64,000 nt of DNA from Candidatus Parcubacteria bacterium (GTDB lineage: Bacteria; Patescibacteriota; Minisyncoccia; UBA6257; HR35): the NCBI GenBank assembly GCA_026004495.1, contig BPJG01000001.1, positions 70,470-134,469 on the forward strand. Reading direction: 5' to 3'. The position numbers and the translations under genes are program-made. The notes beneath the pieces were generated by a model. It did no database searches. It worked only from the letters and a program-made list of their open reading frames with translations, and was not told the DNA's origin. Each line of letters opens with the position of its first letter. Position 1 is the first letter of the stretch. Shown piece by piece: positions 1-53,026 of this stretch.

Positions 1-1
1 G

Positions 2-1502: not shown

Positions 1503-1552
1503 TGATTTATATTAAAATTTAATTAAGGTCGAATTAAAAAAAATTTTAAAAA

Positions 1553-1951
1553 ATGACTTCAGATTATATTCTTTTACTTTCAAGAGTGATTTTAGGTCTT
1601 TATTTTTTATTTAGTGGTTTTGCTCATTTTAAAAATTTAAATATGATGTCGCAGTATGCTCAAAGTAAAAATGTGCCAGCTCCTAAATTGGCTGTTATTG
1701 TTACAGGTCTTTTACTTTTAGTTGGTGGTCTTTCAATTTTACTTGGTGCTTATATTCAAGTCGGGGTTTTAGCTTTAACAATTTTCTTTTTACCTGTTAG
1801 TTTTATGATGCATAATTTTTGGACTGTTCAAGATCCACAAATGAAGATGATGGAAATGATTAATTTTATGAAAAATATGGCTATCTGGGCAGGAGTTTTA
1901 GCTTTACTTTTTATCCCTCAGCCTTGGCCATTCAGTCTTAGTTTGTTCTAA
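1553..1951 (+). CDS. DoxX family membrane protein
   Basis: 132 aa with four predicted TM helices. The N-terminus LLLSRVILGLYFLFSGFAHF is typical of DoxX. Confidence 0.65.
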   Translation: MTSDYILLLSRVILGLYFLFSGFAHFKNLNMMSQYAQSKNVPAPKLAVIVTGLLLLVGGLSILLGAYIQVGVLALTIFFLPVSFMMHNFWTVQDPQMKMMEMINFMKNMAIWAGVLALLFIPQPWPFSLSLF

Positions 1952-1954
1952 TTT

Positions 1955-2063
1955 ACGGTTATAGACTAACGCAGACAATATTAAAACGCAAACTAATGCA
2001 AGCTGATGCGGCTAATGAAGGTATTCGCAACGGTTCGCGTGAAAGTTCGCATAGGTTCGCGAC
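1955..2063. repeat. Intergenic copy of the repeat-arm family containing both orientations
   Basis: ctaacgcagacaatattaaaacgcaaactaatgcaagctgatgcgg is followed by four gttcgc words (ggtattcgcaacggttcgcgtgaaagttcgcataggttcgcgac). gttcgc is the reverse complement of the gcgaac word in the arms. Confidence 0.65.
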
Positions 2064-2072
2064 AAATAAAAA

Positions 2073-3941: not shown

Positions 3942-3949
3942 TTAAATTA

Positions 3950-5386: not shown

Positions 5387-5387
5387 A

Positions 5388-5912
5388 ATGAATAAAAATT
5401 TACAAATAACTTTGGGACTTTTGCGTCTTTCATTGGGCTGGATATTTTTTTGGTCATTTTTAGATAAACTTTTTGGTTTAGGTTTTTCTACTTGCAGAAA
5501 TAGAGAAATAAATATAGTAGATTATTTTTGCCGAGATGCATGGATAAATGGTGGCTCACCAACTTTTGGCTTTTTAAAATTTGCAGTAAAGGGACCTTTT
5601 GCTGAAATTTTTAGATCAATGGCAGGTAACCCAGTTGTTGATTGGCTATTTATGTTAGGACTTTTAGGAGTTGGCTTAGGATTAATGTTAGGAATTTTTA
5701 TTAAACTTTCAACATTCTTTGGCGGATTAATGCTTGTTTTAATATATATTGCTGGCTTTATTTTGCCGGAACATAATCCATTTTTAGATGAACATTTAGT
5801 TTATACAATTTTAATGGGCTTGCTTTATCTTTCAGATTCAGGTAATTATTTAGGCTTAGGTAATTGGTGGCAAAATACAAAATTAGTTCAAAAATATAAA
5901 ATTTTAAAATAA
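5388..5912 (+). CDS. DoxX-like polytopic membrane protein
   Basis: LGLLRLSLGWIFFWSFLDKLFG followed by several TM helices. The start is 1 nt after the cysS stop. Confidence 0.5.
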   Translation: MNKNLQITLGLLRLSLGWIFFWSFLDKLFGLGFSTCRNREINIVDYFCRDAWINGGSPTFGFLKFAVKGPFAEIFRSMAGNPVVDWLFMLGLLGVGLGLMLGIFIKLSTFFGGLMLVLIYIAGFILPEHNPFLDEHLVYTILMGLLYLSDSGNYLGLGNWWQNTKLVQKYKILK

Positions 5913-5931
5913 ATTTTATTACCTTATTTTT

Positions 5932-6510
5932 CTAATATTTTATATGAGGGAAATTTTCAATCCTGCCTAATATTCTAACTTTTAATTTTTTAACGCCCCA
6001 TTTTATAGCTTCATCTACGTTATCAAAATAAACATCAATCTTGTTTCCTTTAACTGCACTGCCAGTATCTAATGCTATGGCATAACCATAATCTGGAATT
6101 TCTAAAACAGTTCCTAATGGAATAATCTCAGGATCGACTGCAACAGTACCCTTTAATGCAGGTAACCCAGAATAAGTAATACCATAATCTTTTCTACCAG
6201 GCATCTTACCCGTAGACTCAGGCCCAGAGGTATAAGCAGTCGCTACTACTTCTAAGGTTTTTAAATATTCAATATTTTTTTGTGAATTTTCTATTATTTC
6301 TTCTAGATCTTTTTTAACTTTCTCATACATTAATTGTTTTTCTTTTAATTCTTTTTCTTTTTCTTCAATTTCTTGCCTAAGATTAGATATTTCTTTGTTA
6401 TCTTTTATAGTTTTTAAACCAAATAAAACAGCTAAAGTCATAAAAAAAGATTTCTTTAAAAAGTCTCTTCTAGAAATTTTTTTATCAAAAAATTTAGGAG
6501 TCTTTTCCAT
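5932..6510 (-). CDS. 3D-domain (RlpA/MltA-like barrel) cell-wall protein with N-terminal anchor and coiled coil
   Basis: VVATAYTSGPESTGKMPGRKDYGITYSGLPALKGTVAVDPEIIPLGTVLEIPDYGYAIALDTGSAVKGNKIDVYF matches the 3D-domain pattern. There is an N-terminal TM segment. Confidence 0.75.
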   Translation of the reverse strand: MEKTPKFFDKKISRRDFLKKSFFMTLAVLFGLKTIKDNKEISNLRQEIEEKEKELKEKQLMYEKVKKDLEEIIENSQKNIEYLKTLEVVATAYTSGPESTGKMPGRKDYGITYSGLPALKGTVAVDPEIIPLGTVLEIPDYGYAIALDTGSAVKGNKIDVYFDNVDEAIKWGVKKLKVRILGRIENFPHIKY

Positions 6511-10985: not shown

Positions 10986-12674
10986 ATGATAGAATTGCCA
11001 TTTATATTCAAATTATCAATATTATTTTTAATCTCCTTTATTTTAGGTTTTTTATTTAATTTAATAAAACAACCTTTAATAATCGCCTATATTATATCTG
11101 GAATTATAGCCGGAAATTATTTAATTGATTCTTTAGAAACTAAAAATATTTTAAGCATATTTTCAGAAATCGGTGTAGCTTTAATGCTTTTTATTGTTGG
11201 CTTAGAGTTAAAACTAAAAGTTATTAAGGATATTGGAAAAAATGTTGCAATCATAGCTATCTTGCAAGAACTATCAGTAATTATTTTGGGTTTTGTGATA
11301 TCCTTAATTTTAGGTTTTAACCATATAGAATCTCTTTATATAGGAATTGCCCTTTCTTTTAGTAGTACAATTATTATTATTAAATTACTTTCTGATAAGG
11401 GCGATTTAGAAAAATTTTATGGTAAATTAGCTATTGGTTTTTTAATTATCCAAGATATAATATCAATAATTTTAATATTATTAATTCCATTTTTTTCCCT
11501 TAATAAAAATTTTATAAACCTAGAAAACAATTTATTAATTATTAGTTTTGTAATATTATTAATATTTTTTACGGTTCGTTATTTAATTCCTAAATTAGAA
11601 AATTTAATTACCAAAACAAATGAATTGCTATTTATTTTCTCATTCTCCTTTGTTTTATTATTATCTTCATTATTTAAATTAGTGGGAATAGGATTAGAAA
11701 TTGGAGCTTTGATAGCTGGACTAATATTAGCTAATTATCAATTTAGTTCAGAAATTAATTTTAAGTTGAGGCCAATAAAAAATTTTTTCTTAATAATATT
11801 TTTTATATATTTAGGTTTAAATATTAAATTTCCTCAAATAGAAAATGAATTGTTTAAAATCTTAACATTTTCCTTTTTTATTTTGATAATTCAACCAATA
11901 ATCAGTTTTTTCTTATTAAAATTACTTAAAATAGGTAATAGGCAAGCTTTTAAATTTAGTTTGATTTCGGCACAAATAAGTGAATTCTCTTTTATTATTA
12001 TCGGTCTTGGAAATAAATTAGGTCAAATAGAAAATAATTTATTCTCAACAATTTCTTTTATCGGAATTATAACTATATTTCTTTCAATTTATATGTTTTA
12101 TTATTCAGACAAAATATACAATTTAATTTTTAAAAAAATATTAAAAATAAAAGATAGGGTTAATATTGATGAAGAAATAAAAAATAAAAATTTTAATATA
12201 CTTCTTATTGGTTGTGATAGAACAGGTTATAGTTTCTTACTAAGTATTAAGGAAAATAAAGAAAAGATTTTAATAATAGAAAATAATTATCAAAAAGTTT
12301 TAGAATTAAAAAAAATAAATTATAATGTTATCTATGGTGATATAGATGAATTTGAATTGTTAGATGAAATAAATCTTAAGCAGTTTAAAATAATAATTTC
12401 TACAATACCTGATTTTGAAACAAATTTAATACTATTAAGAAGATATAAAAAAGACAATCCCAAAGGAATATTTATTTGTAATTCTAATAAATTTAAAGAT
12501 AATTTAGAATTATACAAAAATGGAGCAAGTTTTGTTAACTTACCCCATTCTTTGGGAGGAGAAAAAATAGCTGATTTAGTTAATAATTTTGGTTTTGAAA
12601 TAGATGAATATGAAGCTATTAAAAAAGAAAATTTTGAAAAGATATATAAAATAATTAATTATTTAAAAATTTAA
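10986..12674 (+). CDS. Cation:proton antiporter (CPA2/Kef-type) with C-terminal RCK/TrkA-N domain
   Basis: About 11 TM helices. The N-terminus has QPLIIAYIISGIIAG, typical of Na_H_Exchanger proteins. The C-terminus has NILLIGCDRTGYSF (Rossmann RCK). Confidence 0.8.
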   Translation: MIELPFIFKLSILFLISFILGFLFNLIKQPLIIAYIISGIIAGNYLIDSLETKNILSIFSEIGVALMLFIVGLELKLKVIKDIGKNVAIIAILQELSVIILGFVISLILGFNHIESLYIGIALSFSSTIIIIKLLSDKGDLEKFYGKLAIGFLIIQDIISIILILLIPFFSLNKNFINLENNLLIISFVILLIFFTVRYLIPKLENLITKTNELLFIFSFSFVLLLSSLFKLVGIGLEIGALIAGLILANYQFSSEINFKLRPIKNFFLIIFFIYLGLNIKFPQIENELFKILTFSFFILIIQPIISFFLLKLLKIGNRQAFKFSLISAQISEFSFIIIGLGNKLGQIENNLFSTISFIGIITIFLSIYMFYYSDKIYNLIFKKILKIKDRVNIDEEIKNKNFNILLIGCDRTGYSFLLSIKENKEKILIIENNYQKVLELKKINYNVIYGDIDEFELLDEINLKQFKIIISTIPDFETNLILLRRYKKDNPKGIFICNSNKFKDNLELYKNGASFVNLPHSLGGEKIADLVNNFGFEIDEYEAIKKENFEKIYKIINYLKI

Positions 12675-15271: not shown

Positions 15272-17161
15272 ATGTATAAAGAAAAAAATAAAAAAGAAAA
15301 AAGGAAAAGTGAATCAAGAAAAAAGGAAAATTTCTCTCAATTATTAAATCAAGAAATTTTGTCATTTAAAAATTTTAATGAATTCAATCCAACGCAAAAT
15401 ATTTTTGAAGTTAATTTAATGGAAAAATATATAATTAGGGAAATAAAAGGAGAAGATACTTTATTGCTAAGAAAAATTACTGATACAGAAGATTTAATCG
15501 ATGATAAAGAAACTGAAATAATCGAAGTTTTAAGTTTAAATTTTCCTGAAAGCGAAGAATACAAATTTCCAATAGAATACTGGATAAATTTATGGATAAA
15601 ATATGGCGGATGGATAGATCTTAATAATCTACCTCAAAAAAATGAGCTTTCAATAAAAGAAGCCAGAGAATTTTTTAGTAAAATTCCTTCAAAAACTGAA
15701 GTAATTTTTGATTATTATTTTTCTACTGAAGAAACATTATATAACTTTTGTAAATATAAATCCCAGCATTATTTATCAAGATATATTAGTTTCTTAAATA
15801 TCCATTTAGAAAACTTTAATTATGATATTGTAGGGATTAATTTAGATTATGAAAGATTTTTAGCCCTAAAAAGATATAAATTATTTGGCCGACCGATTCC
15901 TCTTGAAATTCTAAGCTTAGAAGAAATGAATTATTTATTAAGAAATGAAAGATTAAAAGAAGAATACCTTAGTAAAACAACAAAAAGAACATTTAATTGT
16001 GATTTAAATATACAAAATCCAACTTCAAATCAATACGCCGGAACTACAAGAATTATATATACAAAATTAAAAAATCCAGAATATTATCCTTATCACATTT
16101 TTTTAGGAAATCCTTCTGAAGAAGAAATAATAGAATATATTAAAGTATTATTAATTAAGAACTTAGTTTCATCATTTACCCAAAATCAATTTGATGAAAA
16201 TACAATAATTCAAAATTTAATTTTCAATTGTCAATTATATAAAATTTTAAAATCTGAAGATAAAATAATTCTTTTACCAACTGTTGCTACAATTCCTACA
16301 GCTTTTTTATTTAAATGGCTATTAAGGTATACAAAAAAAGAACTTATTAAAAGAGGTAGAGAAGATTTAGCAGAAAAAATTGTTATTCCTAAATTTTTAT
16401 TCATCAATAGTGAAAGTATATACTTAAGAGAAAATCTTAGTAATGAAGGAATTATGAATCAAATATTTCAAAATTTAAAAGAAGGATTAACAACTAAAAC
16501 ATTAGATGAAAAATTACAAGAACTAAAAAAAGAAATTGAAGAGAAGGGAAAAAATGAAGAAGAAAAGAAAAAATTAAATTTTTTAAAATATATTATCGAA
16601 TTTTCTTTGAATCTAAAAAAAAGATTGTATATAGTTAATAAAGAGTTATTTGATGATCTAAATATTGATAACCTAAGACAAAAATTATCAGAATTAAAAA
16701 TTTCTTTTTTAGATGATGCCACAGGAATGAAAGCTACATATTTTTTGTCCTATACATCTGCTTATTTGGCTATCTTAGATATATTAAAAGATAAACTTAA
16801 GAATGATTGGGATAAAATAAGAGATGAAATTTATGATATTTTGGAAAGGGAAATAATGCCCATTCAATTTACAGCTAATTTAGAATCATTAGATTATCAA
16901 ACTATTTATAATCAAAGTGCTAATAGATTTATTATTACAGAAAGATTGTTTATTGAATTACTTCCAATATTTAAAAGAAAAAAAGAAAAAAAGTCAGAAA
17001 ATCCAGAAATTATTTTAGAAAAACCAGATATAAAAACAGAAAAAATTTTGCACGACTTTAATACAAAAAAAATAGAAATATTAAAAGAAATATCTAAATA
17101 TTTATCTCCATTTTTAGCTGACTATATAATCACTTACCCAAATTTAGTTATCCCGAATTAA
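15272..17161 (+). CDS. Hypothetical protein (629 aa)
   Basis: Long ORF with coding-like composition. No motif recognised. Confidence 0.6.
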   Translation: MYKEKNKKEKRKSESRKKENFSQLLNQEILSFKNFNEFNPTQNIFEVNLMEKYIIREIKGEDTLLLRKITDTEDLIDDKETEIIEVLSLNFPESEEYKFPIEYWINLWIKYGGWIDLNNLPQKNELSIKEAREFFSKIPSKTEVIFDYYFSTEETLYNFCKYKSQHYLSRYISFLNIHLENFNYDIVGINLDYERFLALKRYKLFGRPIPLEILSLEEMNYLLRNERLKEEYLSKTTKRTFNCDLNIQNPTSNQYAGTTRIIYTKLKNPEYYPYHIFLGNPSEEEIIEYIKVLLIKNLVSSFTQNQFDENTIIQNLIFNCQLYKILKSEDKIILLPTVATIPTAFLFKWLLRYTKKELIKRGREDLAEKIVIPKFLFINSESIYLRENLSNEGIMNQIFQNLKEGLTTKTLDEKLQELKKEIEEKGKNEEEKKKLNFLKYIIEFSLNLKKRLYIVNKELFDDLNIDNLRQKLSELKISFLDDATGMKATYFLSYTSAYLAILDILKDKLKNDWDKIRDEIYDILEREIMPIQFTANLESLDYQTIYNQSANRFIITERLFIELLPIFKRKKEKKSENPEIILEKPDIKTEKILHDFNTKKIEILKEISKYLSPFLADYIITYPNLVIPN

Positions 17162-18715
17162 CAAGCTAACAAAAAATTTACTTCCCCTACCTTCGCCTTC
17201 TGATTCGGCCCAAATTCTGCCTTGATGAGCTTCAACTAAATTTTTAACAATATAAAGACCTAAGCCAGTACCTCTAATTTCTTTTTTAATTGAAGGATCA
17301 CGAACAAATTCACCAAAAAGCTTACTTTGTAATTCTTTTGACATTCCAATTCCAGAATCACTAACACAAATTATTAATTCATTATTTTGTTTATAAACAC
17401 TTACCTTAACCCATCCTTGAGGAGTATATTTAATAGCATTATCAATTAAATTTTGTATGACTTGAGAAAATCTTAATTTATCAACTTTCAAAATTATTTG
17501 CTCAAGATTAGTTTCAAGACTTAGCTCTAAATTCTTTTCTTTGGCTAAAATAGTAAAATTATTTAAGATTTCTTTAATCAAACTAATAATTTCAACTTCC
17601 TCAAAATTAAGGTCCATTTTACCTTCTTCAATTCGTCGATAATCCATAAATTGTTCAATTAAAACCAAAAGCTTATCAACTGAATCTTTAATTTTTTTGG
17701 CAAAATCTTTTGCTTGTTCCGGCACATTTTCAATTCCATCAGCAATTAATTCAGCATAGCCTTTAACAACAGCCATCGGTGCTTTTACCTGATGCGACGC
17801 AAACGAAAGAAACTCCGATTTAATTCTATTTAATTTTTCCAATTTTTCTCTTAATTCAACTTCTTTTCTTACAGATTGTATAGTTATTAAAGAAACAATT
17901 AATATGAAAATAAATATTATTATTCTAATTAAAATTTCGATAAAATTAATGCTTATTAATATTTGGAATGCTGTTAAAATTAATAATATACTAATTAAAA
18001 TATCAATTAAAATAAATTTAATATTTAAGAATTGATAACGAACTATTGCTAAAAAAGTAAGTAAAATTAGGGGTATAGAATATAAAATACCAAATTGAAT
18101 ATATTTAGCGTTGCCAAATACATTAGGAAATATAAAATTAAAAATTATATGTAAGGTGAAAGTAACCAAAGCTCCGATAAATATTAAGATGGCGGAATAT
18201 TTTAGATTTGTCTCTTTAACAGAATAAATTTTTTTAATAAAACCAACAAAAAAGCTAATTAACAAACCTATTGTGGTTATACCAAATAATACTATACCAA
18301 TATTAGTTTTTACGCTTCCTATAGTGCCGTCAGGTTTAAATGAAATAATTTTTTCGAAAACTAACGGCGTTAATGTGAGTATCGAAACAAAAATAGTAAG
18401 TGGTAATAAAACATATTTAAAAGTTTTAGAATAATTAAAAGAAATATTAGGAAAAGCATAATACAAATTAAATATTGAGAAAGCGTACCAAATAGCAAAA
18501 AACATGTGTATCCTTAAAAAAATAAGTGCAAGGTTATTTAAATGCGGTTGATTGTATAAAAAATTGAAAATACCCCATAAAATAGTGCTTAGACTTAAGA
18601 GTAAATATGCAAAATTAGTAGCACCTTTTCTATTTTGGTTATAAATTATAAAACCTAATACTCCCATAGCACTAGCTACCCAACCTAAGATTATAAATAT
18701 GAAATTTTGGCTCAT
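17144..18715 (-). CDS. Sensor histidine kinase with polytopic N-terminal membrane domain
   Basis: SEFLSFASHQVKAPM (H-box), NLIDNAIKYT (N-box), DSGIGM, GTGLGLYIVK (G-boxes). About 9 N-terminal TM helices. The start overlaps the stop of the upstream methyltransferase gene (ATGA). Confidence 0.9.
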   Translation of the reverse strand: MSQNFIFIILGWVASAMGVLGFIIYNQNRKGATNFAYLLLSLSTILWGIFNFLYNQPHLNNLALIFLRIHMFFAIWYAFSIFNLYYAFPNISFNYSKTFKYVLLPLTIFVSILTLTPLVFEKIISFKPDGTIGSVKTNIGIVLFGITTIGLLISFFVGFIKKIYSVKETNLKYSAILIFIGALVTFTLHIIFNFIFPNVFGNAKYIQFGILYSIPLILLTFLAIVRYQFLNIKFILIDILISILLILTAFQILISINFIEILIRIIIFIFILIVSLITIQSVRKEVELREKLEKLNRIKSEFLSFASHQVKAPMAVVKGYAELIADGIENVPEQAKDFAKKIKDSVDKLLVLIEQFMDYRRIEEGKMDLNFEEVEIISLIKEILNNFTILAKEKNLELSLETNLEQIILKVDKLRFSQVIQNLIDNAIKYTPQGWVKVSVYKQNNELIICVSDSGIGMSKELQSKLFGEFVRDPSIKKEIRGTGLGLYIVKNLVEAHQGRIWAESEGEGRGSKFFVSLLIRDN

Positions 18716-19464
18716 TTCTTTATGATTATTAAAATATACCTTGATCTGAAAGTATTTTTTAGATCTTTAAAGTCAATACCTAAATTTTTATATTTTTCTT
18801 TAATTTTTCTAGTAAGTCTTCTAATAAAGAGATAATATTTCTTGATCCCGATTTTTTTTAAAATTTTTTTTATTTCTGATGGTAAATAAGCTGCTCGAGC
18901 TGAATAATAAATTAATTTTTTACTTAGATTATCAGGCGGTATAACCATTTTTAAAAGATAATAAGGTACATCTCTTCTTAAATCTTGAATATAAATTAAA
19001 CTATTTTGTTTTGTCACCCTTAGCATTTCTTTTATTGCTTTAGAAGTATTTTTAAATTGATGCAAACTATCTTTACACACAACAATGTCAAAATAATTAT
19101 TAGGAAAATTTAATTTATGAATATCATCTGAGATAAATTTTGTATTTTTGCAACCCTTACAGTTTTTCTTTGCCAATTGAAGTGCAAATTTAGTGTTGTC
19201 TATTCCGATAATTAAAGCATTTGGAAACCTTAAAGCAAGCTCTTTGCATAAAAACCCAGGACCACAACCTACATCAAGAATTTTAATTTTTTTATTGGTA
19301 TCTATTTTTGTTTTGGCAAATTCAATTAAATTATCAACAAGCGGAATTATCCACTTTTTATAATTTATTGTTGACATTTTCTCAAATTCTTTATGCTCAT
19401 TAATACCCATTTCTTTAGGTTCGGGAATCCTCTTTTTAAAAAATAGTTTTACTTTATTACCCAT
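18712..19464 (-). CDS. Class I SAM-dependent methyltransferase
   Basis: ILDVGCGPGFL (motif I) and FDIVVCKDSLHQF. Confidence 0.8.
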   Translation of the reverse strand: MGNKVKLFFKKRIPEPKEMGINEHKEFEKMSTINYKKWIIPLVDNLIEFAKTKIDTNKKIKILDVGCGPGFLCKELALRFPNALIIGIDNTKFALQLAKKNCKGCKNTKFISDDIHKLNFPNNYFDIVVCKDSLHQFKNTSKAIKEMLRVTKQNSLIYIQDLRRDVPYYLLKMVIPPDNLSKKLIYYSARAAYLPSEIKKILKKIGIKKYYLFIRRLTRKIKEKYKNLGIDFKDLKNTFRSRYILIIIKK

Positions 19465-20987
19465 TTTTGTTTAATACCTGCCTTAAAATAAATTGGATCT
19501 TCGTAGGGGTGAAGGAAAATTTCTGGTTCTAATTGTTTTTTATATTTTTCTGAAGCCGTTGAATAAAGATGATTATATTCTGTTGAATGTTTAATTAAGG
19601 AGTTTACTACTTCTTTTTTAATTCGTTCTTTTAATTTAAAAGCCGGTTTTATATTCTTTTTCATCTCTATATGAATATGCAATTTTTGATTGTAATTTTT
19701 ATCATAGACAACTTGCATTGTAAATTTACCTGTAATATATTTTTGTAGTTCTGATTTTAATAAAGCTTGTCTAATATATTCAGGATATAAAATAATTCCA
19801 AACAAGGATACAGTAAAGTCAGATCTTTCATAAACATATACGAATGGCAATTTAAGAATTTTATCTTTTATTTTCAACTTCTCAGATTCTTTAAAGATAT
19901 CGATGCCTACTTCTTTTAATCTTTTTATCATTTCATCAAAATAAATAACCCCTCCATAATCAGGGAAACTATATCTTAGAATAGGAATTGAATCTCCATG
20001 TCCCGAGGCCAAGATTAAGCCATCTTTTTCTTCAAACCAAACAATATAAGGATGGTATTGAGCTAAAGTAGGAGTTCTGGTAGCGTCTCTAAAGAGATTT
20101 CTAAAAACTTTATCTTTTTCAACAGCAATGTGCCTTATTAGGTTGGAAAAAGCTGTTTCATGTGCCATAGTTCCAAGTTCAACTGTACCATAAATATTGA
20201 TATTATCATTAAGCATATTTTCAAGATTGACCTTATTAGCGATATACTTTCTAAAGCTTTCAGGAAAGCTTTCAGCAGCATTTAAGATTCTTATTTTGAA
20301 TTTTTTAAATTGAACCCCGGCTGATACTGCTTCGTCGACTAAATCCTTGACAGAAGGAGGATAACCAACAAGAATTATTTGATCGTAATAAAATGATAGT
20401 TTTTGGAAAGTTTTTAATATTAATTCTTTATTTACTCCTATAGGAGCAACTGTTAATGGATATTTTTCGCTGAGTCTGTAGTAAACATAATAATTATGTA
20501 ACCCCCCAATCCATATACCTAATCCAAAGCTCAAAATAACTAAAGTATTAAATTTATTAATACCCCATTGATTTAAAAAGGCAGTTTCTAGTACATACAA
20601 TCCCTGTTCATCCAAATTTTCTCCTCTAATAAAATAAAAAGGCTCACCAGTAGAGCCCGAAGTTGCTGAAATTGTTGTTAGATTTAAATTTTCATTTGGA
20701 TAGAGTTGTTGATAAGGATATTGGCGAAGATAATTATTTTTATTCATAATTGGTAATTTAGCTAAGTCTCTAAAACCAGTAATTTCTCGATAATTAATTC
20801 CATTTTCTTTTAAGAATTGTTTATAAGCTGGTGTTGTTTCAATGGTAAATTTTACTAGTCTATCTATTTGTTTTTTGCCTAAATTCAACCAATAATCAGG
20901 TGGTCGTGTTTTTAATTCCTTCAATCTTTTATCTATGTTTTTGGGATATTTAAAATATATAAATTTTTTGTCCATTATGTTTCCCAT
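19449..20987 (-). CDS. Adenylate-forming enzyme, phenylacetate-CoA ligase / F390 synthetase (PaaK/CapK-like) family
   Basis: SATSGSTGEPFYF corresponds to the TSG(T/S)TG.P AMP-binding motif of the PaaK family. The size and C-terminal lid region are consistent with that family. Confidence 0.65.
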   Translation of the reverse strand: MGNIMDKKFIYFKYPKNIDKRLKELKTRPPDYWLNLGKKQIDRLVKFTIETTPAYKQFLKENGINYREITGFRDLAKLPIMNKNNYLRQYPYQQLYPNENLNLTTISATSGSTGEPFYFIRGENLDEQGLYVLETAFLNQWGINKFNTLVILSFGLGIWIGGLHNYYVYYRLSEKYPLTVAPIGVNKELILKTFQKLSFYYDQIILVGYPPSVKDLVDEAVSAGVQFKKFKIRILNAAESFPESFRKYIANKVNLENMLNDNINIYGTVELGTMAHETAFSNLIRHIAVEKDKVFRNLFRDATRTPTLAQYHPYIVWFEEKDGLILASGHGDSIPILRYSFPDYGGVIYFDEMIKRLKEVGIDIFKESEKLKIKDKILKLPFVYVYERSDFTVSLFGIILYPEYIRQALLKSELQKYITGKFTMQVVYDKNYNQKLHIHIEMKKNIKPAFKLKERIKKEVVNSLIKHSTEYNHLYSTASEKYKKQLEPEIFLHPYEDPIYFKAGIKQKWVIK

Positions 20988-22072
20988 TGTATAAAGGGTG
21001 GTTTTTTAACCGAGATGGCCGATGGTGGATCAGCTTTTCCTATTCTCATTACTGCGGTTAAAATATAATTATTTTTATCTACTTTAAATAATTCACATAA
21101 TTTTTGATAAGAATTATTAATAATGTTTAGCTCTTCTTCATTAAAAATATTTTTGTTTCCAAAATTAGCCTGTTGCCAAAAGAAAAATATTCCTGTAATT
21201 AGATGACAAGCTAAGTTTAACTTTGTAGCTCTAAGCCAAATATTTTCTATAAGCCTACCAAGATTTATAAATTCCTTATCATTATTAATAATAGAAAAAC
21301 CAATCATTGTGTTAGTAGCTGAATACATTTTAACTGTGTCTTTATAAATAGTTCTTACGATTCCTAATTTCTTCATTAATTTAAAGAAAGTAGTATTCCT
21401 TAAAAGTTTAATCATTAATATTTGAGGTGGTTTAAACTCCATTGTTTTGATATATAATCCCCTTTCTCCCTTTTGAGCTTTTTCTTTATCAAAAATGATC
21501 TCATTAAAAAGCAATTTTCTAAGATGGTCATTGTTAAAATTCAAATAAGTGTCATAAGCCAATAAACTGCCAATTTCATTTATTAAATCACCTTCAATTA
21601 TTGAAACCTTACAATTAGAGAAAAAATTAACTTCATTTAATAAATATTTTTTTTCTTCTTCTGTTAAGGCCTCTTTTTTGTAATGGTTTCTATTGGTTGT
21701 TCTTTTTTTAATATATTCATATAAGTCATCTTTCTCTTCAACGCCTGACTTTTCTAAAATAATTGAGGCTATGATATTATTTTCAAATTTCTCATTTATT
21801 GTTATTATGGGATTTAATTTATAATGCTTGGCTGTAATTACTATATTTTCAATTAAAGCCCCACAAGCAATTAAAGTACCTCTATTATTGTAATTTAATA
21901 TTGGATGATCTTTTTCTGGTAAATATCTTATTTTTATCGTATTTTGAGAAGCAATAAATTCCCATGGTTGAGAATTGCTTCCAGATGGAGCATTTAAGCT
22001 TTCTTTTAAAATATTTTCTATTAAAGATTTTTCAGGCATTTTTATTAATAATATTTTACAGCATATAATCAA
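20975..22072 (-). CDS. Double-domain nitroreductase-family protein
   Basis: NAPSGSNSQPWEF is the nitroreductase signature. A second lobe follows at about residues 200-365. The likely true start is MPEKSL at 22039. Confidence 0.7.
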   Translation of the reverse strand: MIICCKILLIKMPEKSLIENILKESLNAPSGSNSQPWEFIASQNTIKIRYLPEKDHPILNYNNRGTLIACGALIENIVITAKHYKLNPIITINEKFENNIIASIILEKSGVEEKDDLYEYIKKRTTNRNHYKKEALTEEEKKYLLNEVNFFSNCKVSIIEGDLINEIGSLLAYDTYLNFNNDHLRKLLFNEIIFDKEKAQKGERGLYIKTMEFKPPQILMIKLLRNTTFFKLMKKLGIVRTIYKDTVKMYSATNTMIGFSIINNDKEFINLGRLIENIWLRATKLNLACHLITGIFFFWQQANFGNKNIFNEEELNIINNSYQKLCELFKVDKNNYILTAVMRIGKADPPSAISVKKPPFIQWET

Positions 22073-22075
22073 TAT

Positions 22076-23188
22076 TTACAATTTTTTTAATTTTTTGAGG
22101 AAATATTTTTGTTGTTTTTTAAAATCTTTAGGTAAAATCGATAACATTTTATCAATATTTAATAAAATTCTTCCTTCTTTAATTTTTCCACCAAGAATAA
22201 TTTTTTTTGATAAATAAGAAACAGCTACACCGCATAAAGTTGCAGCATTACCTAATTGTGGCCAAGAATAAATTGTTTTTCCAACTTCTATTAATGAATA
22301 TAACATTCTTGGCGTTGCTAAATTAGCGCCTGCAATTTTGGCTGTAATCTTTATCATATCTTGAGGATTTAAATTTTTTAGATTTTCGGAAGATAAATTT
22401 CCCAAAAGACCATGAAGAATAGGATAATTAGGATTTAAATCGTATCTTTCGATGTCAATTAAAATATTATCGGCATGGTCTGTTGCCATAATTACAGGAA
22501 TTCTATATTTTTTAGCTTTCTCTCTTATTTTTATTTTGAGATAGAGATTATCCATTTCTTCAATTAAAACATCAATTTTAGGTTTAAGTAAAAAATTATC
22601 TATATTTTTATAAGTAATACCTTCTGAATAAATTTTCAAGCTTGCATAAGGATTTATTTCATAAATTTGTTGAGCACAATAAATTGCTTTATTAATTCCA
22701 ATCGACGAAATAGGATAACGTAATCTATTTAAATTAGATAAAGAAATTTCATCATTATCAGCTATTTTCATATATCTAGCTCCACCTATCATTGCGAGTG
22801 TTAAGGCTATATGAGAACCCACACTAAGACCTGCTATCCCTATTCTTGATTTATAAAACTTTATTTGTTCATCTTTGGTTAGAAGGTAAATATTTCTCGC
22901 AGTTTTAGTTTCAAAAAATTCTTTTTCATCTAAACAGTGAATTAATTTTTTATTCCAGGGGAAATATATCCATTTACCAACTTTATCTAATGTTTTATTT
23001 TTTAATTTTTTCTTTAAAAAATTTTCAAAATCTTGTTGATATTCTTTGATAAATTTATATTTAGGATTTTTAATTAAAAAATAATCTTCTAATTGTTTTT
23101 CGTAATTATCTATGATTTCTGATGGGTTTAATCTCTTTTTTAATAGCTCTAAACTTATATGATGAGCGTTAAAAATTAATGGCTTCAT
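22076..23188 (-). CDS. ThiF/E1-like adenylyltransferase with a roughly 110-aa N-terminal extension
   Basis: RIGIAGLSVGSHIALTLAMIGG...MKIADNDEISLSNLNRL (Rossmann motif plus the D.D....NL.R E1 motif). No CxxC zinc pairs were seen. Confidence 0.75.
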   Translation of the reverse strand: MKPLIFNAHHISLELLKKRLNPSEIIDNYEKQLEDYFLIKNPKYKFIKEYQQDFENFLKKKLKNKTLDKVGKWIYFPWNKKLIHCLDEKEFFETKTARNIYLLTKDEQIKFYKSRIGIAGLSVGSHIALTLAMIGGARYMKIADNDEISLSNLNRLRYPISSIGINKAIYCAQQIYEINPYASLKIYSEGITYKNIDNFLLKPKIDVLIEEMDNLYLKIKIREKAKKYRIPVIMATDHADNILIDIERYDLNPNYPILHGLLGNLSSENLKNLNPQDMIKITAKIAGANLATPRMLYSLIEVGKTIYSWPQLGNAATLCGVAVSYLSKKIILGGKIKEGRILLNIDKMLSILPKDFKKQQKYFLKKLKKL

Positions 23189-28229: not shown

Positions 28230-29027
28230 TTAAATTAAATTTAAATTAATTATTCGTTTTTTATCAAAAAGTTTTTTAAAATCGTGTCCAATCTTGTCCA
28301 TCAAAAAAACTTTTGCTTTAGAACATTTTGTTCTTTGAAAAAAAATAGAACTGGTGTAGTTAATTGTTTCATCTGATTTACCGTGAAATATAATGATGTT
28401 AGGGTAATTTTTATCCATTTTGATAAAAGAGTCAGCCTCCTTGCCGGAAAAATATTTATCCCAACATTTATTTTCTATTCCCCTGAAAGCAAATTTATAA
28501 CCTCTTCTAAGAAATTCGAGGAAAGATATATTGAATTCATAAAATGCTTCTATATTTTTTGGGTTTTCTAGATATGCTAAAACCTCTTTTTTATGTAAAA
28601 ATAGTAAAGGAGCAAATAATAAAACATTCTTTACATCATTTTTGGATACTTTTGCAGAGATAACCGGATTACCAGCAAAACTGTAACCAATTAAATGTAG
28701 ATTTTTGTAATTCCAATATATCTCTTTATTGTCAAAAGTTTTTATCCCTTTTTTCTTTTTTACGAACTCAACTGCTAATTCTACAGTTTTTTTGCAGTTC
28801 TTATAGGTAAAACTGCCTCCACTTAACCAGCTTCCCAGATAATAAACGCTGAAGAAAGCAGTTTTTTTATCTACCTTATCAATAAAAAAATCTTTATCGA
28901 TTATTTGCGGTAACCCAGGGAAATAAATAAAAATATTTTCGACATTTACCTTGCCATTGTTAAAACTATCTTTTGTATAGTAGAAATGCAGTGCTACATT
29001 TTTATAGATAAAAAGTTCTAATTCCAT
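28230..29027 (-). CDS. Alpha/beta hydrolase
   Basis: HLIGYSFAG is a GxSxG-like nucleophile elbow. IIIFHGKSDE and GHDF are consistent with the acid and His positions. Confidence 0.6.
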   Translation of the reverse strand: MELELFIYKNVALHFYYTKDSFNNGKVNVENIFIYFPGLPQIIDKDFFIDKVDKKTAFFSVYYLGSWLSGGSFTYKNCKKTVELAVEFVKKKKGIKTFDNKEIYWNYKNLHLIGYSFAGNPVISAKVSKNDVKNVLLFAPLLFLHKKEVLAYLENPKNIEAFYEFNISFLEFLRRGYKFAFRGIENKCWDKYFSGKEADSFIKMDKNYPNIIIFHGKSDETINYTSSIFFQRTKCSKAKVFLMDKIGHDFKKLFDKKRIINLNLI

Positions 29028-30041
29028 ATTTTTTTAAGCTAATAAATATTTTTCCCTTTACCGCATCGATAATAATTTTTTTATTTCTATAGTTATCAAT
29101 TTTTCCTTTGATTATTTTTGATTCTACAAGACAAAAAATATTAAACTCTCTCGCTATGACTGCTATGTGTAAAAGAATGCCTCCAGTTATTATTAATCCA
29201 TTAATAAATGGAATTTTTTTAATCAACGAAATGTCCAGATTGCGTTTTACTAAAACAATATCATTTTATATTTATTTTATCATAATCTTCAATGTTTTTA
29301 ATTATTTTTAAAAATCAACTTGCGATACCCTTGTAAGCAATATTTCCTGTTCCTATGATTTTACTTTTGTCAAAAGTATAATTTATAATTTGGGGATATT
29401 TGTTCAGAGTTGTAATATTTCTACTTTGGAAAATATAAATTTCCTTACCGTCCCATCCCCATTCAATATCTAAGTATTCCCAAATATACCTTCAAGATTT
29501 AATGCTATCTTTGACAATTTTTTCAAAAATTTAGATTTCAGGTTATTTATTTTGGCTTTTTCAATTACCTTGATAATTGGTTTTTTATGACAACTAACAA
29601 CAGAATCTCCCAAGTCTTGGGTATATTCTACAATCATCTTATTGATATTTTGATTAAATGGATCGGCAGTAAATATCACTCCCGCAACACCTACGGGAAT
29701 CAATTCTTGAATGGCAATAGCCATACTTTCAAATTCCAGTCTGATATCATTTATTCGCGCGTATATTTTAGCATTATCACTAAATAAAGATCGATAACAT
29801 AATATAATTGCCTTTATAATATTTTCTTCCCCTTTTATATTTAAGAAGCTTGAATATTGACCAGCAAAGCTGAAAAAAGGGGGGATCCTCTACCCACACT
29901 TTTCTTTGATTATTTTTATTTTTTTGGATTTAGTTCCTACTTCTAAATTATCATAATCTTCTATAAGTTTTATATTATGGTAAATGAAATGTTTATCACA
30001 CATTAGCTTTAAAACCTCTTCTTTTAAAAAGTTCCTTTCAT
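29002..30041 (-). pseudogene. PEP synthase / PEP-utilising (rifampin-phosphotransferase-like) gene, multiply frameshifted
   Basis: The pieces, in order, are ...YDNLEVGTKSKKIKIIKEKCG*, MAIAIQELIPVGVAGVIFTADPFN...DLGDSVVS (ATP-grasp part, 29470-29724), DIEWGWDGKEIYIFQSRNIT, and GLIITGGILLHIAVIAREFNIFCLV (swivel phosphohistidine domain, 29002-29226). They lie in different frames. Confidence 0.65.
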
Positions 30042-30558: not shown

Positions 30559-31020
30559 ATGAATGATTACTATAAAATATATAATTATTTTTTGACCGCC
30601 ATTAAAAAAGATAATCCTTATGGTACTCCCCCAAAAATTAGTGGAGGAAATACAAAAAATATTAAAAATGCTTTATTAAAATTTTTAATTACCCTCGAAA
30701 AAATAACAACTTCGTCAAAATTAAAATATCAAGATATTTCTATATTTGTTTTAACTGACCCCAAATTTTTCTTTCCTCATAAAAAATCGAACATTACATT
30801 AGATGATTATGGAGCGCATTTAAAAGTAAGTACCAAGGGTTTGTTGTATCAAATCTTTCAAGCTTTGGATTTATCTAGACATTTTAATTTAGTCATAAAA
30901 TTATATAATCTACTTTCAGATTTACATTTATACTTATCAATGAATGATATCCCCTCAGTAGAAATATATAAAAATAAAACTTTGAAATTATTGAAAAAGT
31001 TAAAAGAATTGGTAATTTGA
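30559..31020 (+). CDS. Hypothetical protein
   Basis: 153-aa ORF. No motif recognised. Confidence 0.45.
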   Translation: MNDYYKIYNYFLTAIKKDNPYGTPPKISGGNTKNIKNALLKFLITLEKITTSSKLKYQDISIFVLTDPKFFFPHKKSNITLDDYGAHLKVSTKGLLYQIFQALDLSRHFNLVIKLYNLLSDLHLYLSMNDIPSVEIYKNKTLKLLKKLKELVI

Positions 31021-32362: not shown

Positions 32363-33409
32363 ATGATAAAAGAATTTAAAAGAGATCAACATAAAAATCA
32401 AACTTTATTTGAAAGATTCTTTGAATATAGACAACAAATAAAGAATTTATTTTTTCTATTAAAAAGAATTTTAACGATACCTATTATATACTATGATTAT
32501 CCGAGTGAAAAGATAAAAAATAGTCTTCAAAGAATTATTGACAACTTAGAAAAGAAGTACCCAGGTGATCAATGTCGTAAATATTTAACCTATCTTTTAC
32601 TAAAAGAAAATATAATTGGAGAAAGGGGAATAGTTCCTAAAAAAAGTGAGATTGAAAAGTTTGATTTTAAAGGCGAAGATTCTATTATTTATCAACTACA
32701 ATTATTTATTAAAAACTGGCAAAAAGAAAATGAGGAAATAATAAAACTTAGAAAAGAAAAAAATTTTAAGTCATATTTAGAATTATTAAAATTAACCGAG
32801 AATAATTTAAAAAATAAAAAAATTTTAGATATTGGAACAGGAGAAAATTATTTTATTGACTATTTATATGATAAAGAATTAACAAGTGGTTCTTATGGGT
32901 TAGATATTAAACCTCCAATATTAAATGAGGGACATTTTTTTATTGGTAAATTAGAAGAATTATCTTTTCAATCGGAATCCTTCGATTTGGTCACTTGTGT
33001 AAGTTCTTATCCTGGAATTTTTGTTTTTGAACTAATAGAATCAGAAGAAGTAAATGAATTAAATGAAGAAAAAATAAGAGAATTAATTAGGCAAGGATTA
33101 GAAGAAATGCTAAGAGTAACTAAAAAAGGTGGTGAAATAAGAATTACTCCATTTGCAAAAGAAATTATTTTTGATGAAGAAAAAATTAAGAAATACAAAA
33201 AAATTTATGAAAGATTAATTAAACAAAAAAAGCTAAATGAAATTATAATAGAGGAAATTGAAAATTATTGTAAGGAAACTCAAGCAAAATTAGAAATGGA
33301 ATTTCTTAAAAAAGAAAAATGTCCTATTTATATTAATAAAGATAACCAACCATTTAAAACAAAAAATTATTATATTGCTAATAATTATGTAATTATCATT
33401 AAAAAATAA
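32363..33409 (+). CDS. Hypothetical protein with a class I methyltransferase-like central domain
   Basis: ILDIGTGENYF (motif I-like) and FDLVTCVSS. The N-terminal roughly 110 aa is shared with the 38369-38695 protein. Confidence 0.55.
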   Translation: MIKEFKRDQHKNQTLFERFFEYRQQIKNLFFLLKRILTIPIIYYDYPSEKIKNSLQRIIDNLEKKYPGDQCRKYLTYLLLKENIIGERGIVPKKSEIEKFDFKGEDSIIYQLQLFIKNWQKENEEIIKLRKEKNFKSYLELLKLTENNLKNKKILDIGTGENYFIDYLYDKELTSGSYGLDIKPPILNEGHFFIGKLEELSFQSESFDLVTCVSSYPGIFVFELIESEEVNELNEEKIRELIRQGLEEMLRVTKKGGEIRITPFAKEIIFDEEKIKKYKKIYERLIKQKKLNEIIIEEIENYCKETQAKLEMEFLKKEKCPIYINKDNQPFKTKNYYIANNYVIIIKK

Positions 33410-33428
33410 AAAAAGAATAAATTTACTC

Positions 33429-33456
33429 TTGACAAATTTTTTTATTGAGGTATAAT
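33429..33456 (+). promoter_or_regulatory. Consensus sigma70-type promoter of cassette 1
   Basis: TTGACA (33429-33434), a 16-nt spacer, then TATAAT (33451-33456). Confidence 0.6.
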
Positions 33457-33462
33457 TATTAT

Positions 33463-33526
33463 CGGCTCTAACCCCTATGTCCTCGTCTCTGATATGGAAT
33501 GGAAGCTCCTGCTTCCATTTTTTTTT
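33463..33526 (+). ncRNA. Candidate small RNA 1: 38-nt unique segment plus intrinsic terminator
   Basis: The unique core is cggctctaacccctatgtcctcgtctctgatatggaat. It is followed by the hairpin atggaagc-tcct-gcttccat and T9 (33518-33526). The start is estimated from the -10 box. Confidence 0.5.
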
Positions 33527-33576
33527 ATTCGTGTATTAAATTTAGATTTTCATGATATAATAATTAAAAAAATATC

Positions 33577-33604
33577 TTGACAAATTTTTTTATTGAGGTA
33601 TAAT
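33577..33604 (+). promoter_or_regulatory. Consensus sigma70-type promoter of cassette 2
   Basis: TTGACA (33577-33582), a 16-nt spacer, then TATAAT (33599-33604). The 35-nt block is identical to cassette 1. Confidence 0.6.
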
Positions 33605-33610
33605 TATTAT

Positions 33611-33672
33611 TAGTCTTGCCATAACCGTATCCGAATCACCTAAATTTGGAAGCTCCTGCTTCCATTTTTTTT
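33611..33672 (+). ncRNA. Candidate small RNA 2: 37-nt unique segment plus the same intrinsic terminator
   Basis: The unique core is tagtcttgccataaccgtatccgaatcacctaaattt. It is followed by the hairpin tggaagc-tcct-gcttcca and T8. Confidence 0.5.
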
Positions 33673-33767
33673 ATTCGTGTATTAAATTTAGATTTACATG
33701 ATATAATAATTAAAAAATAAAACTTTTTATGTTTTTAAATAAATTTTATAATATAAAAAAATAGAAA

Positions 33768-34502
33768 ATGGATAAAACTTTAAGGAATTCAATCATAGTT
33801 TTTTTATTTTCCTTTTTAATAATATGTTTTTGGTTTGCTTATGAATACTCAAAAAATGTTAAAGTCAAAAGATTAATTACTGTAATCGGCGAAGGGGAAG
33901 AAATTGTTACGCCTAACATTGCCGAAATAAGAATTGGAATAATTACGAAGGGTGAAGATTTAAAAACTATTCAAGAAGAAAATGATAATAAAATAAATAA
34001 AATTATAGATTTTATAAAGTCAAATGGAATTGATAGTAAAGATATTAAAACAGAAAATTATACAATTCATCCAGATTATGATTATAATACTTATCCTTCT
34101 CAAATTATTGGCTATAGCATAAGTCAAAATTTGAAAGTTAAAATTAGAGATTTGAATAAAATAAGCAATATTTTAAAAAAAGTAGTGTCTGAATATGGTG
34201 CTAATGATGTTTATGGACCTGATTTTACTGTTGACGAAATAGAAAATTATTTAGAAAAAGCAAAAGAAAAAGCAATTTTAAATGCCAAAGAAAAAGCTGA
34301 AAAAATTGCAAAAACAGCTGGAGTTAAATTAGGTAGAATAATAAGTATAAGCGAATCTTCAATATCTGGTAGAGACTTAAGTTCATTTTATAATTCCGCT
34401 GGTCGAGGAGGTGGTGAGTATATTATACAATCATCTCCCAAAATAGAACCTGGGTCTCAAGAAATAAAAACTCAAGTAAGCGTAATTTTCGAAATTAAAT
34501 GA
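33768..34502 (+). CDS. SIMPL (DUF541) domain periplasmic/secreted protein
   Basis: There is an N-terminal TM segment. ITVIGEGEEIVTPNIAEIRIGIITKGEDLKTIQEEN...IKTENYTIHPDYDY fits the SIMPL pattern. Confidence 0.7.
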   Translation: MDKTLRNSIIVFLFSFLIICFWFAYEYSKNVKVKRLITVIGEGEEIVTPNIAEIRIGIITKGEDLKTIQEENDNKINKIIDFIKSNGIDSKDIKTENYTIHPDYDYNTYPSQIIGYSISQNLKVKIRDLNKISNILKKVVSEYGANDVYGPDFTVDEIENYLEKAKEKAILNAKEKAEKIAKTAGVKLGRIISISESSISGRDLSSFYNSAGRGGGEYIIQSSPKIEPGSQEIKTQVSVIFEIK

Positions 34503-52216: not shown

Positions 52217-53026
52217 TTATAAACCTAAAACTTTAATTTCTTCTATTATTTTTTTAATTTTATTGGTATCTATTTTTGTTTTCTGAGAAATATTTTCTAT
52301 ACTATCTCTTAGTAAATCATTTGTTAAAACATAATGATTTTCGATAAATTTCTTTATTATAAATTTATTGGCATTGAGAATTATAGTTACTGGATATAAA
52401 TTTTTATCTTCTATTAATCTTTCTAAAGATTCGTCTGGGGGGTAATGCCAGGCAGTTAATCTTATATTTCGACAATTAGCGAAATTAATTGCCTCGGCTG
52501 AAATTTGAGTATTGGTAACTAACCATGGAATCAAATAGGGATACTTTTCATTTATATCAATCCATCTACCATAAATATATAAAACATTTTTTAGGTCTGA
52601 TCTTATTTCAAAAGAATTGTGAAATTTACATTCAATTATATATTTTTTTTCTTCTTTAATAGCAACTATATCTATTTCGTAATTTAAACATTTACCTTCA
52701 ATAAATTCGTTAATTATGGTATCATAACCATATTCAGCCAAAATTTTAGCAAAATACTGCTCAAAGGGATAGCCCGTAGGTCCCAAATCAAAAATGGCTC
52801 TCTTTAAATTATAACGAAGTGCATAATAATGATTAATTTTTTTTAATTCTTTTATGGTCAATTTGAAAATATCAGAACTTTTAGATACTAAAGGTAATTT
52901 ATTATAGATTCTACGACAAATATTATTAGCAGCTGGATAATCAATCCCGATCCTGCTTAAACTATTACAAAATTTTTCTTCATTAAAAATTTCTTCTTCG
53001 CCAAATTTTTTAATTATTTTTTTCAT
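52217..53026 (-). CDS. ATP-cone domain fused to a restriction-endonuclease-like (Mrr_cat/PD-(D/E)XK) domain
   Basis: The N-terminus IKKFGEEEIFNEEKFCNSLSRIGI...YALRYNL is ATP-cone-like. GYPFEQYFAKILAEYGY...YEIDIVAIKEEKKYIIECKF carries the E.D...ECK nuclease core. Confidence 0.65.
   Translation of the reverse strand: MKKIIKKFGEEEIFNEEKFCNSLSRIGIDYPAANNICRRIYNKLPLVSKSSDIFKLTIKELKKINHYYALRYNLKRAIFDLGPTGYPFEQYFAKILAEYGYDTIINEFIEGKCLNYEIDIVAIKEEKKYIIECKFHNSFEIRSDLKNVLYIYGRWIDINEKYPYLIPWLVTNTQISAEAINFANCRNIRLTAWHYPPDESLERLIEDKNLYPVTIILNANKFIIKKFIENHYVLTNDLLRDSIENISQKTKIDTNKIKKIIEEIKVLGL

Follow-up and report, generated by a model that had tools for sequence, protein, structure and literature searches.

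A 64-kb stretch of DNA (the window) from KatS3mg094, a hot-spring Candidatus Parcubacteria metagenome-assembled genome of 634 kb, carries two tandem units of ~147 nt on the plus strand (33427-33574 and 33575-33717), in which two unrelated cores are set between an identical promoter block and a near-identical terminator and tail. We read these units as two stand-alone small-RNA (sRNA) genes, which would encode trans-acting sRNAs that work by base pairing, and we put the probability of this reading at about 0.45. Support for it comes from the combination of a perfect promoter with a canonical terminator ~40 nt away, a combination that is found twice and that would give each putative RNA its own start and end.

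Shared flanks and unrelated cores in two tandem units

A repeat search recovered a 36-nt promoter block, TCTTGACAAATTTTTTTATTGAGGTATAATTATTAT, at 33427-33462 and again at 33575-33610 with 100% identity, and a 26-nt block, TGGAAGCTCCTGCTTCCATTTTTTTT, at 33500-33525 and 33647-33672, likewise 100% identical. The latter contains an 18-nt GC-rich hairpin, TGGAAGCTCCTGCTTCCA, whose two copies (33500-33517 and 33647-33664; 100% identical) are followed by a run of nine T in unit 1 (T9) and eight in unit 2 (T8). Beyond the hairpin, the T run and an AT-rich tail of 45 nt together form a 53-nt repeat with 98% identity between the units (unit 2 copy, 33665-33717). Pairwise alignment confined the differences outside the cores to one T in the T run and a single T/A mismatch in the tail. 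The flanks thus agree at 108/109 aligned positions, plus one T indel, whereas the cores share 11/37 columns, which is the level expected by chance. The strings TTGACAAATTTTTTTATTGAGGTATAAT and TGGAAGCTCCTGCTTCCATTTT serve as markers of the constant scaffold. The initial annotation of this DNA had described tandem cassettes with an identical promoter block, a near-identical 3' block and completely different cores, and all of these are present where it placed them; only the core lengths shift, to 37 and 36 nt from its 38 and 37, which had included the shared T before GGAAGC.

Within the promoter block of unit 1, the -35 element TTGACA lies at 33429-33434 and, after a 16-nt spacer, the -10 element TATAAT at 33451-33456, with TATTAT leading up to the predicted start site. 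Core 1 (33463-33499, 37 nt), the variable body of predicted RNA 1, is unique in the window. It is followed by terminator 1 (33500-33526), in which the arms TGGAAGC and GCTTCCA enclose TCCT and the T9 run occupies 33518-33526. Tail 1 (33527-33574) comprises the 45-nt block of the duplicated unit and a 3-nt linker, and in its sequence we read an extended -10-like motif, TGATATAAT. Unit 2 has the same layout on the same strand: its -35 and -10 elements lie at 33577-33582 and 33599-33604, and core 2 (33611-33646, 36 nt), the variable body of predicted RNA 2, is again unique in the window, shows no predicted structure and lacks an ATG. Terminator 2 (33647-33672, with T8 at 33665-33672) leads into a 45-nt tail 2 (33673-33717) that carries one T-to-A difference from tail 1.

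Both putative promoters match the consensus TTGACA-N16-TATAAT at 12/12 positions, and a scan of both strands of the window found no other 12/12 site. Under a stringent definition (a stem of at least 6 bp, at least 4 GC pairs and at least 6 T in 8), there are three canonical intrinsic terminators in 128 kb of strand. Two are the hairpins of these units (7-9 bp with 4 GC pairs, then T8 or T9) and the third lies within a coding region, which leaves those of the two units as the only intergenic ones. Dinucleotide shuffles of the window put the number of constant blocks expected by chance at zero. Because the units hold the sole 12/12 promoters and the sole intergenic canonical terminators of the window, they are very probably two independent transcription units yielding RNAs of ~62-64 nt, and it is improbable that a 12/12 promoter and a canonical terminator ~40 nt downstream were paired by chance. 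To judge from its letters, each unit has the makings of an sRNA gene: its own promoter ahead of a short non-coding body, and a Rho-independent terminator. The scans therefore agree with what had been proposed at the outset, namely a consensus TTGACA, a 16-nt spacer and TATAAT together with a textbook intrinsic terminator in each unit, and predicted products of ~62-64 nt that join a variable 5' part to a constant 3' hairpin. As a separate observation, canonical intrinsic terminators are almost absent from the window, and its tRNA genes too lack them.

Predicted RNA 1 (~33463-33526, ~64 nt) folds at -17.9 kcal/mol, with z = -3.5 relative to shuffles, and predicted RNA 2 (~33611-33672, ~62 nt) has a z of -2.9. 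In both cases the better-than-shuffle folding comes mainly from the terminator hairpin, which is still predicted to form at 65-75 C. An additional 7-bp hairpin is predicted inside the core of RNA 1, while in RNA 2 the ~30 nt at the 5' end are predicted to be unpaired. On the minus strand, predicted folding is no more stable than that of shuffles, and the hairpin lacks a T run behind it.

Against a window mean of 24% GC, core 1 has 50% GC, placing it in the top 0.8% of 37-nt windows, and core 2 has 38%, in the top 6%. The cores had initially been called unusually GC-rich; this is true of core 1 and only moderately so of core 2. The four tRNAs of the window have 56-72% GC, as expected in a thermophile with an AT-rich genome. 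Klein, Misulovin and Eddy are said to have reported in PNAS in 2002 that GC-rich islands flag functional RNAs in AT-rich thermophiles, and the GC enrichment of the cores mildly favors a functional RNA.

In the mechanism we propose, each unit would be transcribed from its own strong and probably constitutive sigma-70-type promoter, starting at or a few bases from the first core nucleotide and stopping at the shared hairpin and U-tract. The products, of ~64 and ~62 nt, would differ in a 36-37-nt 5' segment and share the 3' terminator hairpin and U tail. The largely single-stranded, GC-enriched 5' segment of each sRNA would pair with a separate target RNA, the common hairpin and U tail would act as terminator, stabilizer and possibly chaperone handle, and the identical promoters would lead to co-expression of the two RNAs. 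This is the layout of a standard trans-acting bacterial sRNA, in which a 5' pairing segment precedes a Rho-independent terminator, and tandem sRNA paralogues are well known (PMC4211561). As for their origin, the flanks, including even the presumably untranscribed tail, differ by ~1% while the bodies are unrelated, and for this reason we favor a recent duplication of a ~147-nt unit followed by a discrete event in which one copy received a new body; another possibility is that two members of a dispersed family came to lie side by side. The feature is within the bounds of ordinary bacterial sRNA genes, and no present evidence takes it beyond them.

Relatives, further copies and candidate targets

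The units sit between a methyltransferase-like gene (32363-33409) and a SIMPL-family gene (33768-34502). The 348-aa product of the former is KatS3mg094_100 and the product of the latter is 100% identical to KatS3mg094_101; since these consecutive loci flank the cassettes, the public annotation is empty between them. The organism was found in one sample only, DRR290133, and in an independent Logan assembly of that sample the sequence is interrupted precisely at the repeats: one contig (L002) ends 30 nt into promoter 1 and another (L001) begins in the T run of unit 2. These contigs confirm the junctions to both flanking genes, but not the internal order or number of units.

Several results weigh against two functional sRNAs. 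Three relatives (bacterium HR35, BPJI01000001 and an ENA contig) have no cassette upstream of SIMPL, and none lies downstream of the KatS3mg095 homologue of the methyltransferase-like gene; because the cassette is not conserved in relatives, purifying selection cannot be demonstrated. In a thermodynamic scan for duplexes on both strands of the 64-kb window (~10% of the genome), the best sites for cores 1 and 2 reached -29.9 and -24.1 kcal/mol, within the ranges given by shuffled cores (-27.6 to -34.3 and -22.4 to -29.1). From base composition we estimate that ~0.35 perfect promoters are expected per window by chance, so that a single one is not very improbable in an AT-rich genome and a promoter alone says little. 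The near-identity of the flanks, finally, may reflect a very young duplication and not function.

The closest relative is the ENA contig (L009), whose SIMPL protein is 70% identical. Positions 130-176 of this contig, just upstream of its SIMPL gene, align with 33711-33759 of the window at 75% identity (BLAST). Similarity resumes only at ~33711, and therefore the cassettes end there; and as the promoter-proximal region of SIMPL aligns with the relative downstream of the cassettes, these are not needed for SIMPL expression. The methyltransferase-like protein has a single full-length homologue, of 58% identity, in KatS3mg095, and its gene is not syntenic with the homologue's locus. A scan of all fetched loci for mini-genes consisting of a promoter, less than 150 nt and a terminator returned the two units and one weak site in KatS3mg095. 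The absence of the cassettes at the corresponding loci of relatives identifies them as a lineage-specific intergenic insertion. Two further features of the related loci are recorded here in their own right. At the position of the cassettes, L009 1-90 is a very GC-rich, strongly structured segment that closes with a GGGGGGGGCGGGGC...GCCCCCGCCCCCC hairpin, is truncated where the contig stops and has no Rfam match. In KatS3mg095 (locus L010), a ~130-nt GC-rich island at 11680-11817, ~670 nt downstream of the methyltransferase-like homologue, ends in a canonical terminator (ATGGGCGAGC...GCTCGCCCAT TTTT); Rfam has no match to it, and it may be an sRNA gene that annotation has missed.

Searched at up to 3 mismatches, the window had only the two known copies of each constant block. 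A 22-nt pattern of hairpin plus T run had no genuine copy in 185,579 GTDB species genomes or in JGI metagenomes, collections that evidently do not include the source genome itself; the sole GTDB match and the sole JGI match are the same Chitinophagaceae sequence, in an unrelated context, and we attribute it to chance. IMG/VR had no match to the hairpin or the promoter block. The proposal that more copies of the scaffold should be sought thus led to no genuine one in the window or in these three collections.

The search for targets of the two cores, also proposed initially, ended similarly. Within the window BLAST-short found no core match longer than 11 nt. Among 50,697 phage and 72,556 plasmid records, in which the CPR (candidate phyla radiation) phages of this habitat may be missing, BLAST gave no match to the cores, only AT-rich noise outside them, and four exact 19-20-mers from the cores had no match in IMG/VR, to which the same caveat applies. 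Neither these records nor the window held a match or significant complementarity.

Tests against known RNAs were equally negative. At gathering thresholds, Rfam 15 found the four tRNAs of the window and nothing at the cassettes; a permissive scan of 33300-33850 gave sub-threshold L20-leader matches only, on the opposite strand, caused by the hairpin and the A/T runs. ARAGORN detected no tRNA or transfer-messenger RNA at the cassettes. Core 2 was considered as a 16S rRNA 3' end (UAACCGUA...AUCACCU) and rejected, local alignments of both cores in both orientations to the E. coli rrnH operon falling within the shuffle distribution. The idea that the cores are split-tRNA halves was likewise dropped: no acceptor-stem complementarity was apparent by eye, and ARAGORN and Rfam gave nothing. 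Pairing between the two cores does not exceed chance. The reverse complement of core 2 reads AGGTGA-N13-ATGGCAAGACTA (AGGUGA-N13-AUG GCA AGA CUA) and resembles a translation-initiation region, a likeness that 2.8% of shuffles reach per orientation and that is not significant after four tries; we treat this ribosome-binding likeness as a weak lead only.

Alternatives and the genomic surroundings

The cassettes had initially been likened to programmable guide or antisense RNAs. In this alternative, each would have a programmable 5' specificity segment and a constant 3' handle for an effector encoded elsewhere, in the manner of independently transcribed CRISPR RNAs (crRNAs) or other RNA-guided systems of the CPR. 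The tidy exchange of one 36-37-nt module for another within flanks that hardly differ fits it, as do a core length within the range of crRNA spacers and a GC content of the cores above that of the genome, which could reflect a foreign origin; CPR bacteria are known to carry RNA-guided systems, TIGR-Tas among them (PMC12045711), and the window covers only ~10% of the genome. Nevertheless, there are two units only, with no other copy in the window or the large collections, and no protospacer-like match in phages, plasmids or IMG/VR. The duplicated unit runs promoter-core-terminator-tail and not repeat-spacer-repeat, so that the outermost "repeats" are halves; the constant handle amounts to no more than a minimal terminator hairpin; and alternating short repeats and box C/D motifs are absent from the units (no RUGAUGA, and a single CUGA, in core 1). 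Nor was a candidate effector found. Our survey of 40 open reading frames (ORFs), which took in nearly all those of at least 150 aa in the window, used Pfam, with PADLOC and NCBIfam added for ORFs without a family, and found no Cas, Nop/Tas, TnpB/IscB, Argonaute-like protein or reverse transcriptase. This agrees with the earlier remark that no nuclease or Cas-like gene is adjacent. For Nop there were zero Pfam matches among the ORFs scanned, to be read alongside the small family-less ORFs that the window also has, such as 30559-31020 (153 aa). With no copies, targets or candidate effector in 64 kb, the modular look is the one positive sign, and we consider guide cassettes improbable. Just as improbable, in our judgment, is a bolder version in which the units belong to a "plug-in" antisense or guide family, with ~36-nt segments captured from foreign or host nucleic acid and used by an episymbiotic, CRISPR-less Parcubacterium to silence genes of phages, competitors or its host in a programmable, RNA-directed manner, perhaps through an effector encoded elsewhere; cores unlike a 24% GC genome, and a core 2 reverse complement that resembles a ribosome-binding site and start codon, could be taken as pointers to it. 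A methyltransferase guided by these RNAs, an idea prompted by adjacency, was rejected: the full-length homologue has no cassette downstream, and the best PDB match was non-significant, to the peptide methyltransferase LahSB.

A young duplication without function is somewhat easier to entertain, though still unlikely. A promoter- and terminator-like stretch would have been duplicated in a decaying region and one 37-nt body replaced, and any RNA would be noise. The cassette is missing from all relatives examined, the neighborhood looks rearranged (gene fragments at 29002-29724, a methyltransferase-like gene non-syntenic with that of KatS3mg095), and one perfect promoter per window is, by our estimate, near chance. 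Conservation of the tail past the terminator equals that of the functional-looking parts, as recency rather than selection would predict. However, a 12/12 promoter with a terminator ~40 nt on is rare, given three canonical terminators per 128 kb of strand; neutral processes are unlikely to swap exactly the segment from start site to terminator and leave both flanks intact; and the cores share their GC enrichment with the structural RNAs of this genome. A cis-acting role is distinctly less probable. Here unit 2 would be a promoter with a terminator-controlled leader of SIMPL, unit 1 its duplicate, and a factor acting on the hairpin would regulate read-through. Unit 2 does share the strand of the SIMPL gene and lies ~100 nt upstream of it, the order of promoter, short leader, terminator and gene is that of an attenuator, and the tail holds the extended -10-like motif. 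Yet the two leaders have only the terminator in common and hence no common sensor sequence, the 36-nt leader has no predicted antiterminator fold, promoter 2 would bypass terminator 1, SIMPL has promoter-proximal sequence of its own that aligns with the relative, and no riboswitch or leader family matched apart from the spurious L20-leader signal.

Very small peptides, either MSSSLIWNGSSCFHFFLFVY (plus strand, unit 1) or MEAGAS... (minus strand) and perhaps tied to a nearby cluster of ThiF, nitroreductase, ligase and methyltransferase genes, are barely credible as products. A minus-strand ORF does open with ATGGAAGCAGGAGCTTCC (MEAGAS) in both units and has a variable end, and the modification-enzyme-like cluster (17144-23188) also occurs in KatS3mg095, where it adjoins the methyltransferase-like homologue. 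But these ORFs have 16 and 9 codons and neither a ribosome-binding site nor a promoter-like site, and their shared "leader" is the hairpin read backwards. Six-frame translation found no ORF common to both units: the plus-strand ORF of unit 1 has 20 codons and no ribosome-binding site, and it lacks a counterpart in unit 2, whose core has no start codon, in agreement with the initial view that a peptide function is unlikely. Other RNA functions, such as a protein sponge or priming, take the remaining probability.

The ORFs scanned are ordinary housekeeping genes (aminoacyl-tRNA synthetases, enolase, IMP dehydrogenase (IMPDH), Mur ligase, SecF, Fpg, KsgA, LepA and similar). Several other features of the window are noted for their own sake. 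The cluster just mentioned, on the minus strand, encodes a histidine kinase, an S-adenosylmethionine-dependent (SAM) methyltransferase, a PaaK-like adenylating ligase (512 aa), an Rv1355c/Acg-type nitroreductase-like protein (365 aa) and a ThiF/E1-like protein (370 aa). In KatS3mg095 the conserved cluster spans L010 3911-9096, with a 50-aa ORF beside it; weak matches to DVU_1553/1556-family models hint at a possible role in peptide or small-molecule modification. An Mrr-like protein of the PD-(D/E)XK restriction-endonuclease fold with an AF1548-like C-terminal domain (52217-53026, minus strand) lies 19 kb from the cassettes; its gene directly adjoins that of the KsgA/RsmA rRNA dimethyltransferase and gave weak PADLOC matches to CARF-PD-(D/E)XK models. 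At 2073-3941 (plus strand), an NDH-2-type pyridine-nucleotide-disulphide oxidoreductase carries an inserted PD-(D/E)XK_3 nuclease-superfamily domain (residues 197-309), which makes it an unusual fusion or insertion. GC-rich direct repeats of 10-11 nt (ACGCAGACTA / AGTCTGCG, in both orientations) occur in and around this gene, at 682-745, 1986-2068, 2499-2632, 3024-3186 and 3547-3594, and the region 1-6000 has higher GC and a strong GC skew. Short ORFs resembling fragments of larger genes lie at 28230-29724, among them an 84-aa piece like the N terminus of a PEP-utilizing enzyme (PPDK), of which intact genes are present in L010; the 29-33.7-kb neighborhood appears rearranged or decaying, and gene orientation and GC skew change sign near 30 kb.

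Comparison with known RNA systems

In type II-C CRISPR arrays, as in Neisseria, a promoter lies inside each repeat and crRNAs are transcribed independently. The units described here are similar in having a variable segment of ~36 nt with a promoter in the constant sequence just upstream, and in a predicted RNA that is variable at its 5' end and constant at its 3' end. They differ from CRISPR arrays in that the constant stretch between the cores is ~111 nt long and complete only once, in that there are two units, and in the terminator that follows each; moreover, the 40 ORFs scanned in the 64 kb included no cas gene, and neither a tracrRNA-like partner nor a protospacer match turned up. No CRISPR-like array was visible in the tandem-repeat list of the window. 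Of the hallmarks of an array, namely at least three repeats of about 25-40 nt, cas genes and spacers matching mobile genetic elements, none was found in the window or the databases searched.

TIGR-Tas systems, RNA-guided systems of phages and CPR bacteria, have processed guide RNAs of 36 nt (PMC12045711). In each unit, edge repeats alternate with loop repeats (8-12 nt each), accompanied by two spacers of ~9 nt and by box C/D-like motifs, and the arrays, usually of 5-15 units beside a Tas gene with a Nop domain, are transcribed as one and then processed (PMC12045711). The Patescibacterial host, the length of 36 nt and the combination of constant and variable modules are points in common; in contrast, the cores here have no shared internal repeats and no box C/D motifs, and no Nop match was found among the ORFs scanned. 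A type III toxin-antitoxin (ToxI-like) arrangement also does not fit, as the bodies are unrelated and the downstream gene is of the SIMPL family.

An engineered counterpart is closer in form. In synthetic sRNA design, which is engineering practice and not a natural family, a target-binding sequence is grafted onto a fixed scaffold and terminator. The likeness lies in a fixed promoter, an exchangeable 5' antisense segment of ~20-40 nt and a fixed terminator scaffold; the difference is that the natural scaffold here consists of the terminator hairpin only, and no chaperone-binding module could be identified in it. To our knowledge, almost nothing is known of regulatory RNAs in CPR bacteria (Patescibacteria), and the two units, if expressed, would be clean and easily testable examples. 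Should further cores on the same scaffold exist in the genome or population, they would speak for a modular natural system that generates new antisense or guide RNAs; if no others exist, the two units would form a lineage-specific orphan sRNA pair, useful for annotation and not conceptually new.

The natural systems that come nearest to our preferred reading, two trans-acting sRNAs, are tandem "sibling" sRNAs such as OmrA/OmrB, PrrF1/PrrF2, LhrC1-5 and NgncR_162/163 (reviewed in PMC4211561). Like them, the putative genes described here are adjacent, would be transcribed independently, each from its own promoter to its own Rho-independent terminator, appear to stem from tandem duplication, are predicted to yield RNAs of less than 100 nt and would place the pairing region before the terminator hairpin. 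The siblings, however, have similar bodies, usually including the seed, and promoters that have often diverged. Here it is the promoter, terminator and tail that are identical or nearly so, and the bodies, agreeing in 11/37 core columns, have neither the likeness nor the common seed expected of a sibling pair. One scaffold with two unrelated bodies thus suggests a discrete body-replacement event and not ordinary divergence. Among tandem sRNA pairs, these two are unusual in that the part they share is the scaffold and not the body.

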